Shown: piece by piece, positions 825 through 7,070 of the stretch | How positions within the stretch are numbered: the first letter of the stretch is position 1 | Layout: each line of letters starts with the position of its first letter | NCBI GenBank assembly: GCA_030649345.1 | Contig: JAUSKK010000033.1 | Coordinates: 1 to 31,760, forward strand | Origin: Candidatus Iainarchaeum sp. | GTDB lineage: Archaea > Iainarchaeota > Iainarchaeia > Iainarchaeales > 0-14-0-20-34-12 | Length of the DNA: 31,760 nt | Direction: 5' to 3' | Notes under the pieces: model-generated | What the model was told of the DNA's origin: nothing | The model's input: the letters and a program-made list of their open reading frames with translations, nothing else | Database searches by the model: none | Translations under genes and position numbers: made by a program

Positions 825-1577
825 TTAACACCTGCACACAAACTCTTGTTCAGTTTGCCGCAAAGATTCTTTCCAGCCAATATCAAACCATTTATCCGAA
901 TACACAAAACCATACAATAAATGTTTTTCAACTAACCAGTTCATAAAATAACCCATTTTATCTAAATCAGGCCCTTGTTTGCCTTTTTGATGCACATACT
1001 CTTCAATCAAAGAAATCTTATTTTTTGGAATAAAATAAATTCCATGTGAAGCCAAAGTTGACTTTGGATTTTGAGATTTTTCTTCAAACTCCAAAACTTT
1101 GTGCCCAGAATTTAAAACACCTGTGCCCAATTGAGCAGCCAATTCTTTCGAACCGCATTCATGAAAGGTATTTACAATTACATTATTTTTTTTAAAAAAA
1201 TCATAAGCTGGTTTCAATGAAAAATTAAACAAATTATCTCCGGCTACAACCAATAAATCTTCATTCATTTTATTTTGATTGATGGCCAAAGCAATGTCTC
1301 CAATCTGCCCCAAGCGTGTTTCATTTGAAGTAGTTTCATCATTCAATAAATAAATTGGAATACTGGAATAAAATGCTGACAGCCAATGTTTGAATACTGG
1401 AAAAAACTTGGCATTGCATACAATCCAAATCTCAGAAATGTCTTGCAGTTCTTCAAGCTTGCAGACAATATGTTCCAAAATAGGCTTGTCTTTGATTTTC
1501 AGCAAAGCTTTGGGTTTATTTTTCGTCAAAGGATACAAGCGCACAGCATACCCTGCAGCTGGAATAATCACTTTCAT
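825..1577 (-). CDS. sugar-1-phosphate nucleotidyltransferase (glucose-1-P uridylyl/thymidylyltransferase-like)
   Basis: The N-terminus KVIIPAAGYAVRLYPLTKNKPKALLKI matches the GxGxRLxPLTxxxPK signature. VVAGDN matches the metal/sugar-site motif. The start overlaps the upstream stop as ATGA (1574-1577). Confidence 0.85.
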   Translation of the reverse strand: MKVIIPAAGYAVRLYPLTKNKPKALLKIKDKPILEHIVCKLEELQDISEIWIVCNAKFFPVFKHWLSAFYSSIPIYLLNDETTSNETRLGQIGDIALAINQNKMNEDLLVVAGDNLFNFSLKPAYDFFKKNNVIVNTFHECGSKELAAQLGTGVLNSGHKVLEFEEKSQNPKSTLASHGIYFIPKNKISLIEEYVHQKGKQGPDLDKMGYFMNWLVEKHLLYGFVYSDKWFDIGWKESLRQTEQEFVCRC

Positions 1578-2722
1578 TTAAACATCGTTCTCCTAACTTT
1601 TTCTGCAGAACCTTGAGCTTGAAATGCTTCAAAAAACAATAAAGCTTCAGAGTAAGCAACGCTTTCAAGAGCTTGAACTGTGGATTCACGCAAAGAATAC
1701 AATTCGTCAAAAAATTCTTTCGTAGCATTCTTTCCATACAAGCCCAAAATTTGCGGTTCAGTTTTTAGTCCTTTTTTGACAGCATCTTCTTTAAATTTTT
1801 CCATAGTCCAAGCACACATTCGTTGATGCAAATCAGGCTCGTATACTTTTAGAGTATCCCATACAATATTTTGCCAAAAAGTTCCAACATTTCCTTTCAA
1901 TACATCTTTATGCGGAAACAAAGTACGAATTAATTCTCTAGGAGTTCCAGTAATTCCATGTTGAGCAATGCGTACATCCAAACCAGCTGTGCGAATAGCT
2001 TTGGCTACAGCTTGAGTTTGCGAAATATCAATAGATAATTGAGCCATTAAATTTCCTTGCAAGTCATAATTGTTTCCATGCGCTGAACCATTTGCAATTG
2101 CCAAAACATTCGGAAAAACATCTTGTTCTTTCAAGCCCTGCAAAAAGGTTACAGCTTCTTCTGGTTTTGTTTTAACTTTGCCTTGACCGTCATGATAACC
2201 AATTTCTCCAACTTCTACTTCTAAACCAAATTCTTTGTCATTCATTTTATTCTTGACATATTTAACCATACGAGAAGTCACTTCAATATTTTTAGCCAAA
2301 CATTCTTCTGTTGTCTTTCCGTTTACATTAAACAAAAACGAGGCATCAATAGCAAACGAAGTATACCCTGCTTTGACTTGCGCATCAATTAAATCTTGAA
2401 CTTCTTTAATTTCTTCAAGATTCCCTTTTTTTAAAGTAATATGATCCGCATGAAGACCCCACATGTCAAACTTTACATCTTCTGCAATTGCTCGAGTCAT
2501 TTTAGATAATTTTTCAGGAGTTAAACCAGTATAACCGCCAGTTAAATCACATTCCGATTTAGCCAACTCAACCAAAAAAACAGCATCCATTTTTTTTGCA
2601 GCACGAAATACACCGTGAGCCACACCATTCAAGATCCGTAAATTGGTGGCCATAATAATGGAACCAGAATCTTTTAAAGTATTAAAAAAATAATTGCTTG
2701 GCTTGGGTTCAAAATTAGTCAT
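1574..2722 (-). CDS. class II (metal-dependent) fructose/tagatose-bisphosphate aldolase family protein
   Basis: Motifs align to class II FBA: HADH (HxDH zinc ligand region), EVEVGEIG, IANGSAHGN, AQHGITGTP and KGNVGT. An AAGGTG Shine-Dalgarno sequence lies upstream of the ATG. Confidence 0.8.
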   Translation of the reverse strand: MTNFEPKPSNYFFNTLKDSGSIIMATNLRILNGVAHGVFRAAKKMDAVFLVELAKSECDLTGGYTGLTPEKLSKMTRAIAEDVKFDMWGLHADHITLKKGNLEEIKEVQDLIDAQVKAGYTSFAIDASFLFNVNGKTTEECLAKNIEVTSRMVKYVKNKMNDKEFGLEVEVGEIGYHDGQGKVKTKPEEAVTFLQGLKEQDVFPNVLAIANGSAHGNNYDLQGNLMAQLSIDISQTQAVAKAIRTAGLDVRIAQHGITGTPRELIRTLFPHKDVLKGNVGTFWQNIVWDTLKVYEPDLHQRMCAWTMEKFKEDAVKKGLKTEPQILGLYGKNATKEFFDELYSLRESTVQALESVAYSEALLFFEAFQAQGSAEKVRRTMFK

Positions 2723-2732
2723 ACAGCACCTT

Positions 2733-3677
2733 TTATTTTAAATAAATTGAATTAATATAACGAACTGATTTGGTTTCAGCATTCAAAATCAAAGAATGTA
2801 ATTTTATTTTCTCTGAAGAAACTTCAGCTCCTTTCAACAAAACACCGGATTGAATTCCGGTTGCAACAAACATTCCTTCAGATCCTTTGGATAAATCTTG
2901 AATCAAATATTTTTTGTTCAAATCCAATACACCCATTTCTTTGGCTCGTGCAGCTTGCTTTTCATCCGTAAACACCAAACGGCCTTCCATATAACCACCG
3001 AGACATTTTAATGCAACTGCAGAAATAACGCCTTCGGGTGCTGCTCCAATTCCCAGCAATAAATCAATTCCAGTTCCTTCCAAGCAAGTAGCAATGGCTG
3101 CAGGCAAATCGCCATCAGCAATCAATTTTATCTGTGCTCCAGTTTCTTTTACTTCTTTAATTAATTGTTCATGCCTAGGCCGATCCAATACAATTACAGT
3201 AACTTCGGAAACTTTTTTATTCAAACATTCTGCCACAATTTGAATATTTTTTTGTACTGACCAGTCTAAATTTACTTTTCCTTTGCATTTAGGACCTACA
3301 GCAATTTTATTCATATAACAATCTGGAGCATGCAATAAAGTTTTACTCGGAGCTAAAGCCAAAACAGCAATCGCATTCGGAACATTGTTGGCCACACTAT
3401 TCGTACATTCCAAAGGATCTACTGCAAAATCTACTTCAATGCCTTTCCCAGTTCCTACTTTTTCTCCAATAAACAACATAGGCGCTTGGTCTCGCTCTCC
3501 TTCTCCAATCACAATAGTTCCTTGCATTTCAATTTTATTAAACTCTAAACGCATGGCTTCCACAGCAGCTTGATCTGCAGAATTTTTGTCTTTTTTTCCA
3601 ATCCATGGAACACAGGCCAAAGCAGCTTGCTCGGTTCCTTTCAAAATTTCAAAAGCCAAAGAATCTTTCAATAACAT
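2733..3677 (-). CDS. glpX: class II fructose-1,6-bisphosphatase (GlpX type)
   Basis: The N-terminal block ...TEQAALACVPWIGKKDKNSADQAAVEAMR...GTIVIGEGERDQAPMLFIGEKVGTGKG..VDFAVDPLECTN... closely follows the GlpX consensus. Its start overlaps the ugd stop as TAATG. Confidence 0.9.
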   Translation of the reverse strand: MLLKDSLAFEILKGTEQAALACVPWIGKKDKNSADQAAVEAMRLEFNKIEMQGTIVIGEGERDQAPMLFIGEKVGTGKGIEVDFAVDPLECTNSVANNVPNAIAVLALAPSKTLLHAPDCYMNKIAVGPKCKGKVNLDWSVQKNIQIVAECLNKKVSEVTVIVLDRPRHEQLIKEVKETGAQIKLIADGDLPAAIATCLEGTGIDLLLGIGAAPEGVISAVALKCLGGYMEGRLVFTDEKQAARAKEMGVLDLNKKYLIQDLSKGSEGMFVATGIQSGVLLKGAEVSSEKIKLHSLILNAETKSVRYINSIYLK

Positions 3678-4963
3678 TACTTCGACCCCAGGCCTACATA
3701 GGTAAATCCTAAATTTCTCATTTTTTGCGGATTGTATAAATTACGTGCATCAATTAAAACAGAATTTTTCATCAAAGACTTTGCTTTCACAAAATCTAAT
3801 TCTTTGAATTCATTCCATTCAGTCACCAAAATCACAGCATCCATATTCTTGAATACATCATACACGGAAGAAACATATTCTGTTTCCGAAAACAATTTTT
3901 TGGAATTCTCCATAGCCACTGGATCAAATGCTTTAATTTCAGCACCTTCTTTTTTCAATAAATCCATAATCACTAAACTCGGAGCATCTCTCATATCATC
4001 GGTGTCCGGCTTAAACGCCAAACCCAATAAACCAACCTGTTTTCCCTTTAAATTGCCCAAAACTTTTTTTAATTTTTCGACTGGCAATTTTTTCTGCAAA
4101 TCATTCGAATGATAAGCTGCTTGAGCTACACTTAAATTTACATGAGCTTGATTTCCAATCGAAATTAAACCAATCACATCTTTTGGAAAACATGAACCCC
4201 CCCATCCGCAGCCGGCTTTCAAAAAAGCTTTCCCAATTCTGGCGTCTAAACCCATGCCTTCTGCAACCAATCGAACATCCGCATTTACAGCATCGCATAA
4301 ATTGGCCACTTCATTAATGAAAGAAATCTTCACAGCCAAAAAAGCATTGCTGGCATACTTAATCATTTCCGCAGTTTTGACATCAGTAAACAAAATTTCT
4401 GCATTCAATGGAGCGTACAAGTCACCCAATGTTTTCTTAATCGATTCAGAATCCGCGCCAATCACAACCCGATCTGGTTCCATAAAATCTTTGATTGCAT
4501 TGCCTTCTCTTAAAAATTCTGGATTGGATACCACATGAAATTTTCCTTTATAATATTTTGAAATAATTTCCGAAACTAAATCACCAGTTCCAACTGGAAC
4601 TGTACTTTTATTAATAATTATTTTTTCATTCGTCATATTTTTTCCAATGGTTTCCGCAACACTTTTCACATACTTTAAATCCGGAGTTCCATCTTGGTCT
4701 TGCGGAGTTCCAACTGCAATAAAAATAATTTCGGAATTCTGCACAGCTTTTCCAACATCCGTAGTAAAACTCAAACGCTTTGCTTGAACATTTCGTTCAA
4801 TAATTTCTTCCAATCCAGGTTCGTAAATCGGACAATGACCTGCGTTCAACAGTTCAATTTTCTTGGAATCAATATCTCCGCAAATGACTGTATTTCCTAA
4901 ATCCGCAAAACAAGCACCGGCCACTAAACCAACGTACCCTGTACCCAAAACAGCAATTTTCAT
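3677..4963 (-). CDS. ugd: UDP-glucose 6-dehydrogenase
   Basis: MKIAVLGTGYVGLVAGACFADLGN is the Rossmann region. GGSCFPKD contains the catalytic Cys. LGLAFKPDTDDMRDAP is the C-terminal UDPG_MGDP_dh motif. Confidence 0.92.
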   Translation of the reverse strand: MKIAVLGTGYVGLVAGACFADLGNTVICGDIDSKKIELLNAGHCPIYEPGLEEIIERNVQAKRLSFTTDVGKAVQNSEIIFIAVGTPQDQDGTPDLKYVKSVAETIGKNMTNEKIIINKSTVPVGTGDLVSEIISKYYKGKFHVVSNPEFLREGNAIKDFMEPDRVVIGADSESIKKTLGDLYAPLNAEILFTDVKTAEMIKYASNAFLAVKISFINEVANLCDAVNADVRLVAEGMGLDARIGKAFLKAGCGWGGSCFPKDVIGLISIGNQAHVNLSVAQAAYHSNDLQKKLPVEKLKKVLGNLKGKQVGLLGLAFKPDTDDMRDAPSLVIMDLLKKEGAEIKAFDPVAMENSKKLFSETEYVSSVYDVFKNMDAVILVTEWNEFKELDFVKAKSLMKNSVLIDARNLYNPQKMRNLGFTYVGLGSK

Positions 4964-5016
4964 TAAAATTCCTCGGATTTTAAATACTTAAAATTTGTTT
5001 CAGATTTTAAATTCAT
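4963..5016 (-). promoter_or_regulatory. candidate 17-codon leader uORF (MNLKSETNFKYLKSEEF*) ending in TAATG on the ugd start codon
   Basis: The ATG (complement of 5014-5016) is directly preceded by the hairpin/SD module also found in front of rpl10 and the PHP gene. The stop (complement of 4963-4965) shares one nucleotide with the ugd ATG (4961-4963). Confidence 0.35.
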
Positions 5017-5039
5017 TAAAATCGCCCTTGCAATTTTAA
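5014..5039 (-). promoter_or_regulatory. SD-in-loop hairpin module, copy A (TTAAAATTGC-AAGG-GCGATTTTA-ATG in gene sense)
   Basis: Arms are 5016-5025 and 5030-5039, with one G-U position. The loop is AAGG in sense. The ATG follows immediately. Confidence 0.5.
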
Positions 5040-5130
5040 ATATTTAAAATTTCTTGTTTCAAATTTTAAACCCACAAAAAACACCTTATTTCCAGCATTT
5101 AAACGCATTTTATACTAGTTTAGATAAAAG

Positions 5131-5220
5131 AACCAGAAATAATTTAAATATCAGAACCTACGGTTCCGATACCTCCCTTCACAGTTCATTAATAGAAAAA
5201 ACCAGAAATAATTTAAATAT
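5131..5220. repeat. two perfect 21-bp direct repeats AACCAGAAATAATTTAAATAT (5131-5151 and 5200-5220), each carrying a TATA-like TTTAAATA
   Basis: I confirmed an exact match by indexing. The second copy lies about 60 nt upstream of the 5281 ATG, a plausible promoter position. A small GAACC-TAC-GGTTC hairpin sits between the copies. Confidence 0.7.
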
Positions 5221-5280
5221 ATGACTCCATCATATACTATAATACAAAGTATGAGGATTTCAATAAGAGGTTAAACCCAA

Positions 5281-6093
5281 ATGAGAGAACGCATTACCAT
5301 TACGATTAAACAGGAAATTTTAGACCAAGTGGACCGCATGGTCGACGGCTTAAATGTGCGCAGCCGAAGCCAAGCTTTTGAATTTTTGTTAAGCAAAGTT
5401 TTAACAGATGTAAAACTTAAAACTTGCTTAATTTTGGCTGGCGGAGAAAAAAACAAAATAATGATTGACCGAAAACCTAAATTTTTGCAGGAAATCAAAG
5501 GAAAAGAATTATTGATTCACTCCATGGATGCCATCCACAAACACCATGTAGGAAGATTTTTAGTTTACGTAGACAATTTCGGAGAAGAAATTGCACAAAA
5601 ACTCAGCCAAAAACAATTGCAGTACAATTTAGAATTCATTCAAGGAAAAACAAGTTCTGGAACCATTGAACCCTTGCAATTAGCTAAAGACAAACTCAAT
5701 GACACATTCTTGTTAGCTTACGGTGATACTATTTCAAACGTAAATATTCAAGAAATGCTTCAATTTCACCGCGAACAAAAAGCAATTGCAACCATTGCAT
5801 TAACTACAGTCAGCAATCCCAAAGACTATGGAGTAGCTATCCTGCAGGGCAATAAAGTAAAAGCATTTATTCAAAAACCCAGCAAAGACTTAGGCAGCTA
5901 TATTATCAGCACAGGCTATTTTTTGTTTGAACCTGAAGTCTTCAAATATTTATCCAGAAATGACACCAGTTTAGAAAAAGACTTGCTGCCCAGACTAGCT
6001 GAAAAAGGCTTATTGAATGGTTACACCTTTCAAGGACTTTATTTAAACATTAACTCCAAAAAAGACCTAGAAAGAGCAGAAATACTTCTATAG
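5281..6093 (+). CDS. ribbon-helix-helix (CopG/NikR-like) DNA-binding domain fused to a nucleotidyltransferase-like domain
   Basis: Residues 1-43, MRERITITIKQEILDQVDRMVDGLNVRSRSQAFEFLLSKVL, show the beta-strand / helix / helix pattern of RHH proteins such as the NikR N-terminus. The remainder (ILAGG..., LLAYGD, GVAIL..G.V..F.QKP, GYFLFEP) is an NTP_transferase fold. An AGAGGT SD sequence lies upstream. Confidence 0.8.
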   Translation: MRERITITIKQEILDQVDRMVDGLNVRSRSQAFEFLLSKVLTDVKLKTCLILAGGEKNKIMIDRKPKFLQEIKGKELLIHSMDAIHKHHVGRFLVYVDNFGEEIAQKLSQKQLQYNLEFIQGKTSSGTIEPLQLAKDKLNDTFLLAYGDTISNVNIQEMLQFHREQKAIATIALTTVSNPKDYGVAILQGNKVKAFIQKPSKDLGSYIISTGYFLFEPEVFKYLSRNDTSLEKDLLPRLAEKGLLNGYTFQGLYLNINSKKDLERAEILL

Positions 6094-6140: not shown

Positions 6141-6193
6141 GTGGTGCTGACCAACGGAAAGCACCACAACCTACCGCCGCGGTTAGGCGGCGG
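6141..6193. other. two adjacent GC-rich hairpins (candidate small structured RNA, cis-regulator or terminator)
   Basis: GTGGTGCT (6141-6148) pairs with AGCACCAC (6160-6167) across an 11-nt loop. CCGCCGC (6174-6180) pairs with GCGGCGG (6187-6193) across a 6-nt loop. The segment is about 67% G+C in a roughly 30% G+C background. Confidence 0.4.
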
Positions 6194-6239
6194 CGAAAAG
6201 CACTTAAATTAAAATTACCTAATAAAAGATACTGAGAAT

Positions 6240-7070
6240 ATGATTCAATCCTTTATTCAAGCCATCAAATTATTGGTTCAAAAGCCTTGGTTAATTTTAC
6301 CAGCAGTACTAATCCAAGTACCCATTATCGGAGTTAGTGCCTGGGTAGCCGAAAAATTTGTAACCATTTTTATTCAATTAATTTTTGTATTGGAATCTGG
6401 ACAAATTTTTCCATGGGAATTACCCATTCGATTGCTTCAACTCAATCCAATTCAATCCCTTGAATTTTTGTTGGGTCTTTTAGTTATTGCTTATTTGAAT
6501 ATTGGAATGTTTTACGTATACGCACGATTTGCCAGAGAACACAACACAGGAAAAAATGCATCCATTTTAACCGCCAGCAAATACACAGTAAGCAAATTCA
6601 AAGAATTATTTTATTTAATATTATTTTTCGCAGTCATTGGCTTGCTTACCATCACAGCCTATGAATTGATTTTAATGCTGAGTTTCGGAATTCAAATCTT
6701 GGGAATTATTTTCACAGCAGCCTTATTCTTGCTTATGCTTTATTTGGTTGTCAAATTTTTAACACTCATTCCAATTATCAGCGATGGAAAAAACACACTC
6801 AAAAATGGATTGAAAAAAAGCTGGGCTTTTAGCCAGCAAAATTTTATTGCCAGTTTAGCAGTCATTGCATGGATTTCAGTATATTCATTCTTTTTTGAAC
6901 GAGCCATGGAATACATTATTGGCGCCAACACCAATCCAGTATTGGTCATCAGTGCATCCATTATATTGTATGGAATTCTTTCCACCATTACTTTGATTTA
7001 TATTTCCTTGTTCTATTTCAATAAACACAAACAAGAAAAATATTCAGAAACTGAAACCATCACGGAATAA
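6240..7070 (+). CDS. polytopic integral membrane protein, function unknown
   Basis: It has at least six hydrophobic segments of about 20 aa, for example WLILPAVLIQVPIIGVSAWV, LLGLLVIAYLNIGMFYVY and ILGIIFTAALFLLMLYLVV. I recognise no catalytic motif. Confidence 0.6.
   Translation: MIQSFIQAIKLLVQKPWLILPAVLIQVPIIGVSAWVAEKFVTIFIQLIFVLESGQIFPWELPIRLLQLNPIQSLEFLLGLLVIAYLNIGMFYVYARFAREHNTGKNASILTASKYTVSKFKELFYLILFFAVIGLLTITAYELILMLSFGIQILGIIFTAALFLLMLYLVVKFLTLIPIISDGKNTLKNGLKKSWAFSQQNFIASLAVIAWISVYSFFFERAMEYIIGANTNPVLVISASIILYGILSTITLIYISLFYFNKHKQEKYSETETITE

Follow-up and report, generated by a model that had tools for sequence, protein, structure and literature searches.

A ribbon-helix-helix and nucleotidyltransferase-like fusion protein as a candidate nucleotide-sugar-sensing regulator in DPANN archaea

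The stretch of DNA analysed here (the window; 31,760 nucleotides of contig JAUSKK010000033.1 from Candidatus Iainarchaeum sp.) carries, at 5281..6093 on the forward strand, a 270-amino-acid (aa) open reading frame (ORF) whose product combines a ribbon-helix-helix (RHH) domain and a sugar-1-phosphate nucleotidyltransferase (NTase)-like domain in one protein. With moderate confidence, we regard this protein as a nucleotide-sugar-sensing, self-repressing one-component regulator of the uridine diphosphate (UDP)-glucuronate/UDP-xylose operon that it faces, a reading built on the observed domain architecture, motif loss and synteny and on the observed conservation and position of an operator-like array of half-sites. 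A preliminary description of this DNA had proposed a one-component regulator with an enzyme-derived, possibly inactive sensor domain, its RHH domain binding two 21-bp direct repeats in the spacer between the divergent genes. The regulator and its probably inactive sensor are supported by the conservation of the RHH domain, the loss of motifs and the synteny; the repeats as binding sites are not.

The fusion is not a one-off: DPANN archaea contain a large family of such proteins, as yet uncharacterised. A word-indexed search returned 377 homologues at E ≤ 1e-5, and the alignment, conservation values and motif counts given below refer to the best 120 of these 377. The 120 sequences are approximately 262-284 aa long, apart from two shorter fragments, align with near-full coverage, and come from metagenome-assembled genomes (MAGs) of Diapherotrites/Iainarchaeia, Aenigmatarchaeota, Nanoarchaeota and Woesearchaeota, in which all of them are generically named as enzymes. 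A scan with one genome per GTDB species added genomic context for 80 loci, and the orthologues proved to be nearly always divergent from nucleotide-sugar genes.

The RHH domain and the altered nucleotidyltransferase fold

The predicted regulator gene was identified from its ORF (N terminus MRERITITIK), its Pfam matches and its homologues, and a Shine-Dalgarno-like GAGGT (5267-5271) lies 9 nt 5' of its ATG. Residues 1-45 (5281..5415, forward strand) correspond to a NikR/CopG-type RHH DNA-binding domain, assigned from the Pfam RHH_1 model, from a family profile compared with NikR and from the helices of an AlphaFold2 model. When the full 270-aa protein is scanned, RHH_1 matches aa 4-35 with 20.5 bits (E = 4.6e-4), a score equal to the gathering cut-off; residues 1-45 scanned by themselves reach 24.8 bits, and 19 of 22 family N-terminal segments scanned separately also match. 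A profile of the family N-termini has the RHH domain of E. coli NikR (1q5v) as its best match in the PDB (E = 1.3e-5, with MQRVTITL aligned to RERVTITI), and matches P. horikoshii NikR and, weakly, CopG as well. The AlphaFold2 model (predicted local distance difference test score, pLDDT, of 92.6 for the whole protein) contains an extended segment at residues 1-10, helices at 11-20 and 29-44, and then an alpha/beta domain; the pLDDT is 77-87 in the N-terminal RHH part, the model being of a single chain and the RHH strand pairing only in a dimer. The beta-strand reads R4-x-T6-x-T8, and RSRSQA sits at the beginning of helix 2. In the alignment R4, T6, D18, R29, S30, A32, E34 and L37 are invariant or nearly so, and the mean majority fraction is 0.72 for the RHH domain (aa 2-45) versus 0.60 for the NTase part and 0.32 for its signature loop. 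These comparisons mark the RHH domain as a genuine one of NikR-like type, more strongly conserved than the rest of the protein, and the N-terminal RHH module proposed earlier withstands profile detection, though its full-protein RHH_1 score is only at the threshold.

Residues 49-270 (5425..6090, forward strand) constitute the sugar-1-phosphate nucleotidyltransferase-like domain, the predicted ligand sensor. Pfam NTP_transferase (PF00483) matches aa 50-244 with 78.6 bits (E = 7e-22), the top Foldseek matches of the AlphaFold2 model are VTC1, GMPPB, GMPPA, RmlA and GlmU (E = 1e-20 to VTC1/GMPPB), and phmmer against the PDB finds GMPPB (E = 6e-22). The cut-offs of the NCBIfam enzyme models all lie far above the scores of the regulator, the best of which is 98 bits against a cut-off of 300. 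The nucleoside triphosphate/pyrophosphate (PPi)-binding signature loop is degenerate: in the GMPPB alignment aa 54-67 (5440..5481, forward strand) read GGEKNKIMIDRKPK in place of GGxGTRLxPLTxxxPK, and the pattern G-x-G-x-R-L-x-P-L-T is not matched (GGEKNKI--MIDRKPK). Over aa 52-69 the window protein has LAGGEKNKIMIDRKPKFL, and the NTase encoded nearby on the opposite strand (825..1577) has AAGYAVRLYPLTKNKPKALL. The neighbouring enzyme retains the signature, in agreement with the preliminary description; a small correction to the latter is that the aligned arginine position is occupied by Lys59.

Individual residues were mapped through the GMPPB alignment, which tracks VTC1 numbering in the N-terminal part, and the roles of the catalytic, PPi-site and pocket residues were taken from the VTC1 structure paper (PMC9168903). 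In the PPi site, VTC1 Gly9 (window G55) and Lys23 (K67) are kept, Thr12 is lost (N58) and Arg13 corresponds to K59, at a position that is not conserved in the family. The catalytic residues Asp111 (D149) and Glu195-Lys196 (E232-K233) are kept, and Asp219 is lost, so that of the two acidic residues that flank the phosphates the first is retained and the second, the second catalytic/metal Asp, is N256 (codon 6046..6048, forward strand). In the pocket that contacts the nucleoside and the sugar, Gly85 (G127) and Tyr145-Gly146 (Y183-G184) are kept, as is the lysine of the EKP motif (K199). The comparison with active NTases called for earlier thus finds a catalytic set that is not fully intact, with Thr12 replaced by N58 and Asp219 by N256. 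Such a pattern of motif loss is as would be expected for a product-binding, non-catalytic domain, and we infer from it that the NTase-like domain of the window protein is probably no longer catalytic.

The same motifs divide the family. Conservation is lowest at loop positions 56-66 (entropy 3.0), and in the subfamily of the window protein (P0001-P0106) the canonical signature occurs in 0 of 106 members and [WFY]xDxG in 0 of 106. At least one of these two motifs is present in 13 of the 14 members of a sister group (P0107-P0120), and both are present in 10 by the strict pattern. Position 256 is Asn in 108/120 sequences and Asp in 12/120, all 12 belonging to the intact subfamily. The intact proteins (for example the 281-aa paralogue of L023, and L008) carry LAGGKGTRLRPLT, GTGGPL, EKP and either WFPTDT or WFDTG; they share 35-37% identity with the window protein along its whole length, the RHH domain included, and are widespread in Nano-, Woese-, Micr-, Parv- and Altiarchaeota. 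NTP_transferase scores follow a gradation from 155-157 bits in intact members through 122 in an intermediate (L020) and 78.6 in the window protein to 71.5 in Woesearchaeota members, in whose subfamily the signature loop has been deleted (LLLKGEHQ). The intact lineages, possibly of trigger enzymes, and the degenerate lineages of sensors probably all descend from a single old fusion of a NikR-type RHH domain to an active NTase.

Divergent sugar operons and the predicted operator

The fused gene faces ugd (UDP-glucose 6-dehydrogenase; 3677..4963, reverse strand) across a divergent spacer of 317 bp (4964-5280). The assignment of ugd follows from Pfam and from TuaD/AglM-like NCBIfam matches, the product scoring best against UDP-glucose 6-dehydrogenase models. 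It is followed on the same strand by a glpX-type fructose-1,6-bisphosphatase gene (2733..3677) and a class II fructose-bisphosphate aldolase (FBA) gene (1574..2722), both recognised by Pfam, by the gene for a bona fide sugar-1-phosphate nucleotidyltransferase without an RHH domain (825..1577; AAGYAVRLYPLT... and WFDIG, from ORF and Pfam), and by that for a UXS-like NAD-dependent short-chain dehydrogenase/reductase (SDR) of the UDP-glucuronate decarboxylase type (3-821, from profile matches), which is truncated by the window end. The ugd-glpX-fba-NTase-uxs order given in the preliminary description is thus borne out, the first four genes by Pfam and the last as a supported UXS-like SDR.

This arrangement is conserved. 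Of the 31 informative GTDB species loci in the clade of the window protein, 28 have ugd directly upstream on the opposite strand, the exceptions being L041, which has an epimerase gene instead, and L039 and L040, which have no sugar gene. The ugd operon of relatives usually goes on with a canonical NTase and a UXS-like SDR; in two Aenigmatarchaeota loci (L005 and L006) the annotated neighbours include no sugar gene other than ugd. In the Woesearchaeota/Nanoarchaeota subfamily the divergent partner is an adenosine diphosphate (ADP)-heptose operon, found in 31 of 34 informative loci and encoding a cupin, an HldD-type epimerase, a kinase corresponding to RfaE domain I, GmhB, RfaE domain II as a CTP_transf_like protein of its own, and a GT2 transferase. 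Both operon types encode their own true NTase, and the fused protein therefore fills no missing enzymatic step; its candidacy as the missing NTase of the pathway was rejected given the canonical NTase in the window operon and the separate CTP_transf_like gene in the heptose operon. A type II toxin-antitoxin system (RHH with an MNT-type NTase and HEPN) was likewise rejected, the domain having the PF00483 sugar NTase fold, with no MNT or HEPN family among the Pfam matches and no HEPN annotation among the called neighbouring genes.

Two further observations concern the heptose-linked loci. In L054 (2616-5877) and approximately 30 other Woesearchaeota/Nanoarchaeota loci, the cupin occupies the place expected for the GmhA isomerase. 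The Woesearchaeota-type gene also occurs in MAGs titled 'uncultured Methanosarcinales archaeon' (L047, L050, L052, L056, L074, L077-L079, L082, L084, L085, L087 and L090), most of which also show the heptose-operon context, and their taxonomic labels may be unreliable.

Orthologous spacers cannot be aligned and range from 42 to 701 bp, yet they share the palindromic element TCATA-N5-TATGA, usually with a third TATGA after it. The element lies ≤125 bp upstream of the start codon in 24 of 38 loci (distinct species), and the remaining 447,846 bp contain only eight further copies, three of which belong to the same spacer carrying insertions (L001, L003 and L017) and five of which precede a second, intact RHH-NTase paralogue. 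Alignment of 34 sites reveals an A-rich stretch resembling a B recognition element (BRE) at −27..−21 and TTTAAA at −18..−10, together with a third half-site at +20..+24 that lies outside the search pattern (T33 A34 T30 G30 A33 of 34). The window spacer aligns position by position with the resulting cross-species consensus, TATA(-18..-10)-TCATA(0)-gTATGA(10)-gTATGA(20): its TATA (5212-5219) stands at −18, an extra TATGA (5220-5224) at −10, TCATA (5230-5234) at 0, a degenerate TAATA (5240-5244) at +10 and gTATGA (5249-5254) at +19 to +24. By this comparison the predicted operator spans 5220..5254, its half-sites in exact 10-bp phase, directly beyond a predicted regulator promoter (5203..5219, forward strand) that consists of the A-rich BRE-like stretch and the TATA box TTTAAATA (5212-5219), the position of which matches the consensus of the 34 aligned sites. 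A related array, TATAAAG-TA(A/T)(T/G)A(C)-N4-TACTAC-N4-TCATAC, is found just 5' of the ATG in the Woesearchaeota subfamily.

The operator of E. coli NikR is GTATGA-N16-TCATAC (PMC7055735). By sequence, the family hexamer GTATGA/TCATAC is identical to this NikR half-site, a match that fits the R-x-T-x-T strand shared by the RHH domains of the family and of NikR. The GTATGA/TCATAC half-site array at 5220-5254, conserved across phyla, is the likely operator. Archaeal transcription starts approximately 25 bp past the TATA box, so the expected start site falls within the array, as is classical for repression in archaea.

The distance from the first half-site to the start of ugd is 39-95 bp in 24 of 26 site-bearing loci, with a median of 66.5 bp. 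Where the spacer has expanded, the operator remains close to ugd, at 80 of 318 bp in L001, 95 of 238 bp in L003 and 67 of 701 bp in L017; its staying near ugd despite the insertions speaks for a role of the site at the ugd promoter as well. The insertions themselves lie between operator and regulator, and are GC-rich and repeat-like in L001 (7790-8000) and L003 (7880-8000); that in L017 holds a 204-aa ORF (5375-5989). Elsewhere in the window the sole other match to the operator, at 2709-2723, was rejected as an extra operator, as it overlaps the FBA start codon and fits chance expectation, and no regulon beyond the spacer was definable from the window. The second, catalytically intact paralogue (281 aa) occurs in L020 (8328-9173), L023 (6896-7741), L029 (7692-8537), L033 (7752-8597) and L036 (8318-9163), with its own TCATA-N5-TATGA-N5-TATGA at its start and an epimerase gene following.

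Proposed mechanism and alternative explanations

In the mechanism that we propose, two NikR-type RHH domains would pair and the beta-ribbon of the dimer (R4, T6 and T8) would read one (G)TATGA hexamer, several dimers lining up on successive helix turns along 5220-5254. The array lies just past the TATA box (5212-5219), over the expected transcription start, and from this position its occupancy should block the recruitment of RNA polymerase, so that the regulator would repress its own gene. The corresponding site of relatives, which lies upstream of the divergent ugd at a distance of 39-95 bp, would also set the expression of the UDP-glucose → UDP-glucuronate → UDP-xylose operon. The ligand of the sensor, an NTase fold that keeps the nucleoside/sugar pocket with the triphosphate/PPi loop and one metal-binding Asp gone, would be a pathway nucleotide-sugar (UDP-glucose, UDP-glucuronate or UDP-xylose), the binding of which would alter the assembly of RHH dimers on the array.

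Several points weigh against this mechanism. DNA binding, ligand binding and the loss of catalysis are each deduced from sequence and comparison. D149, E232-K233, K67 and K199 survive and the loop is rich in Lys/Arg, and the window protein may therefore possess residual or altered catalytic activity. Conservation is lacking at aa 122 (equivalent to VTC1 Asp80), the position that discriminates the base, which therefore does not point to any one ligand. The middle half-site of the window operator is degenerate (TAATA), and a few relatives (L039 and L040) have no sugar gene nearby. Direct control of ugd in this genome is the weakest step, with synteny as its evidence: L018 (122 bp) and the window are the two exceptions in operator-to-ugd distance, the window being the outlier at 266 bp, and no half-site is found near the ugd-proximal promoter copies of the window. 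The large distance in the window reflects duplications that enlarged its spacer on the side of ugd. An imperfect, TATA-like-rich tandem duplication of approximately 56-59 bp occupies the ugd promoter/leader region there (4977..5085, reverse strand; repeat families D1 and D3), its copies at 4977-5026 and 5033-5085 adjoining ugd; the duplicated ugd leader reported earlier is hence present in imperfect form (78-91% identity).

The retained residues and the basic loop would also suit a trigger enzyme, that is, a protein still active as an unusual NTase that binds its own operator, with turnover or substrate occupancy setting its DNA binding. Further encouragement comes from the sister subfamily, which combines an RHH domain with a fully intact NTase and has the same type of operator before its gene, and from L020, which retains an R-M-F-P-L-T stretch. 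Nevertheless, the loop and the second Asp are both gone in 106/106 members of the window subfamily and kept in the sister subfamily, the loop, where conservation is lowest, has been deleted outright in the Woesearchaeota subfamily, and the linked operons already encode a canonical NTase; we consider a trigger enzyme in the window to be unlikely, though it is the main rival to our reading.

An autoregulator that binds DNA but no small molecule, its NTase-like domain serving as an oligomerisation scaffold that spaces the RHH dimers, appears improbable. NTases of the sugar-1-phosphate fold form dimers and tetramers, a multi-site operator array needs higher-order assembly and the base-specific residue is not conserved, all of which a scaffold would accommodate. 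It would not be expected, though, to keep the nucleoside- and sugar-contacting residues invariant or nearly so (G127, Y183-G184, K199-P200, G212 and E217), nor to have pocket residues that differ between the ugd-linked and heptose-linked clades and are conserved within each, as is expected of ligand pockets.

The two 21-bp direct repeats (5131..5151 and 5200..5220, both forward strand) were confirmed as perfect and as the only two copies in the window, with a chance expectation of 0.01, and it is this rarity that makes them attractive as RHH binding sites. We nevertheless judge that role very improbable. The repeats contain no GTATGA-type hexamer, bar the single base at 5220 that the downstream copy shares with the first half-site; they match the BRE/TATA segment of the consensus, no half-sites follow the upstream copy, and they are not repeated in relatives, the spacers of which may be as short as 42-63 bp. 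The repeats are instead lineage-specific and carry a BRE/TATA element, with a functional-looking BRE/TATA in the downstream copy and a promoter-like sequence in the upstream copy, and the conserved element is the half-site array at 5220-5254. With two copies only, the repeat was also rejected as a genome-wide promoter consensus. The upstream copy (5131-5166 with its flank) is followed by a small hairpin, GAACC-TAC-GGTTC (5154-5166), and may be a second, unregulated promoter or a relic. Finally, it is scarcely credible that the protein is a metabolic enzyme of the ordinary kind that regulates nothing and whose N-terminal extension is vestigial, despite its annotation in public records as a sugar phosphate nucleotidyltransferase, since the extension is better conserved than the rest of the protein, matches RHH profiles and co-occurs across phyla with a conserved, cognate-looking operator.

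Flanking features and comparison with known systems

Within the operon that faces the regulator, the glpX fructose-1,6-bisphosphatase and class II FBA genes (1574-3677), which are gluconeogenic, stand between ugd and the true NTase; in L001 (5170-6288) an FBPase_3-type enzyme takes the same slot and looks like a non-orthologous replacement. On the other side, two GC-rich hairpins (6141-6168 and 6175-6194) lie in AT-rich surroundings directly 3' of the regulator stop codon, with a fold z-score of −3.5, 0 of 200 shuffles as good and no Rfam match, and may represent a small RNA or a terminator-like element. No structured RNA was identified when the window was scanned for Rfam families and tRNAs. 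Directly downstream, on the same strand, a 276-aa predicted membrane protein (6240-7070) has no Pfam match.

The proposed regulator resembles NikR in its N-terminal RHH domain (1q5v being the best PDB match of the family profile), its R-x-T-x-T strand, its GTATGA/TCATAC hexamer and its layout of RHH plus a C-terminal domain for ligand binding and oligomerisation. It differs in that its C-terminal domain has the NTP_transferase fold rather than the ACT-like nickel-binding tetramerisation domain of NikR, in the arrangement of its half-sites (TCATA-N5-TATGA-N5-TATGA in 10-bp phase, versus GTATGA-N16-TCATAC), and in a ligand that is presumably a nucleotide-sugar and not a metal. On the side of the sensor, GMPPA is described in two papers as a non-catalytic paralogue of GMPPB that binds the pathway product guanosine diphosphate-mannose and acts as a sensor (PMC11228364; PMC9168903). 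The window protein shares its fold (Foldseek 7d72_A), and the loss of motifs in the window protein alongside a retained nucleoside/sugar pocket would fit a sensor of this type. GMPPA, however, has a left-handed beta-helix domain and acts by protein-protein contact with the active enzyme, whereas the window protein (270 aa) is without the beta-helix and has a DNA-binding RHH domain. Compared with the catalytic enzymes of PF00483 (RmlA, GalU and GMPP), the Rossmann-like fold is the same and most nucleoside/sugar pocket residues are kept, but the signature loop and the second Asp are missing and the RHH domain is additional.

Fusions of a DNA-binding domain to a metabolic enzyme domain of the regulated pathway are familiar from the active trigger enzymes PutA (which has an RHH domain), BirA and NadR. 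The intact sister subfamily looks like this type; the three proteins are active enzymes of other folds, and the window subfamily is without the signature motifs. Degenerate enzyme domains reused as effector-binding modules are found in NrtR (a degenerate Nudix domain), ROK-family repressors and B. subtilis PurR, which are, like the proposed regulator, one-component systems with an enzyme-derived sensor, and which differ from it in having winged-helix or helix-turn-helix DNA-binding domains and other enzyme folds. To our knowledge, no regulator is built on the sugar-1-phosphate NTase fold, and literature searches found no published description of the RHH-NTase fusion or its operator. The kind of system, whether as an RHH regulator with a ligand domain or as an enzyme-derived sensor, is known, and this architecture with its operator is apparently undescribed.

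For the family as a whole, we lean, if only slightly, towards a DPANN (and Altiarchaeota) superfamily of nucleotide-sugar-responsive transcription factors that pair a NikR-type RHH domain with an NTase fold. Its three states, namely intact (possible trigger enzymes), motif-degenerate and loop-deleted (Woesearchaeota), would represent a transition from enzyme to sensor, with subfamilies wired to UDP-glucuronate/UDP-xylose or to ADP-heptose surface-glycan precursors. Among database entries, hundreds that bear the name 'sugar phosphate nucleotidyltransferase' probably represent regulators.

Most DPANN archaea are uncultured, host-dependent organisms with small genomes, and we know of almost nothing on how their genes are regulated. 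If our reading is true, these proteins would rank with the earliest candidates for metabolite-sensing regulators put forward in such reduced, uncultured archaea, and would come with a ready-made operator code of GTATGA hexamers in 10-bp phase. The family would offer a complete, testable circuit, from the protein and its operator to the target operons and a few candidate ligands. The NikR-type RHH domain and the GTATGA half-site seem to form a portable DNA-reading module, here reused alongside a sensor domain of a very different kind, and the intact and degenerate paralogues side by side would show how a metabolic enzyme can become a sensor domain. The nucleotide-sugar precursors made by the target operons plausibly feed cell-surface glycans, and their regulation may thus have a bearing on contact with the host.

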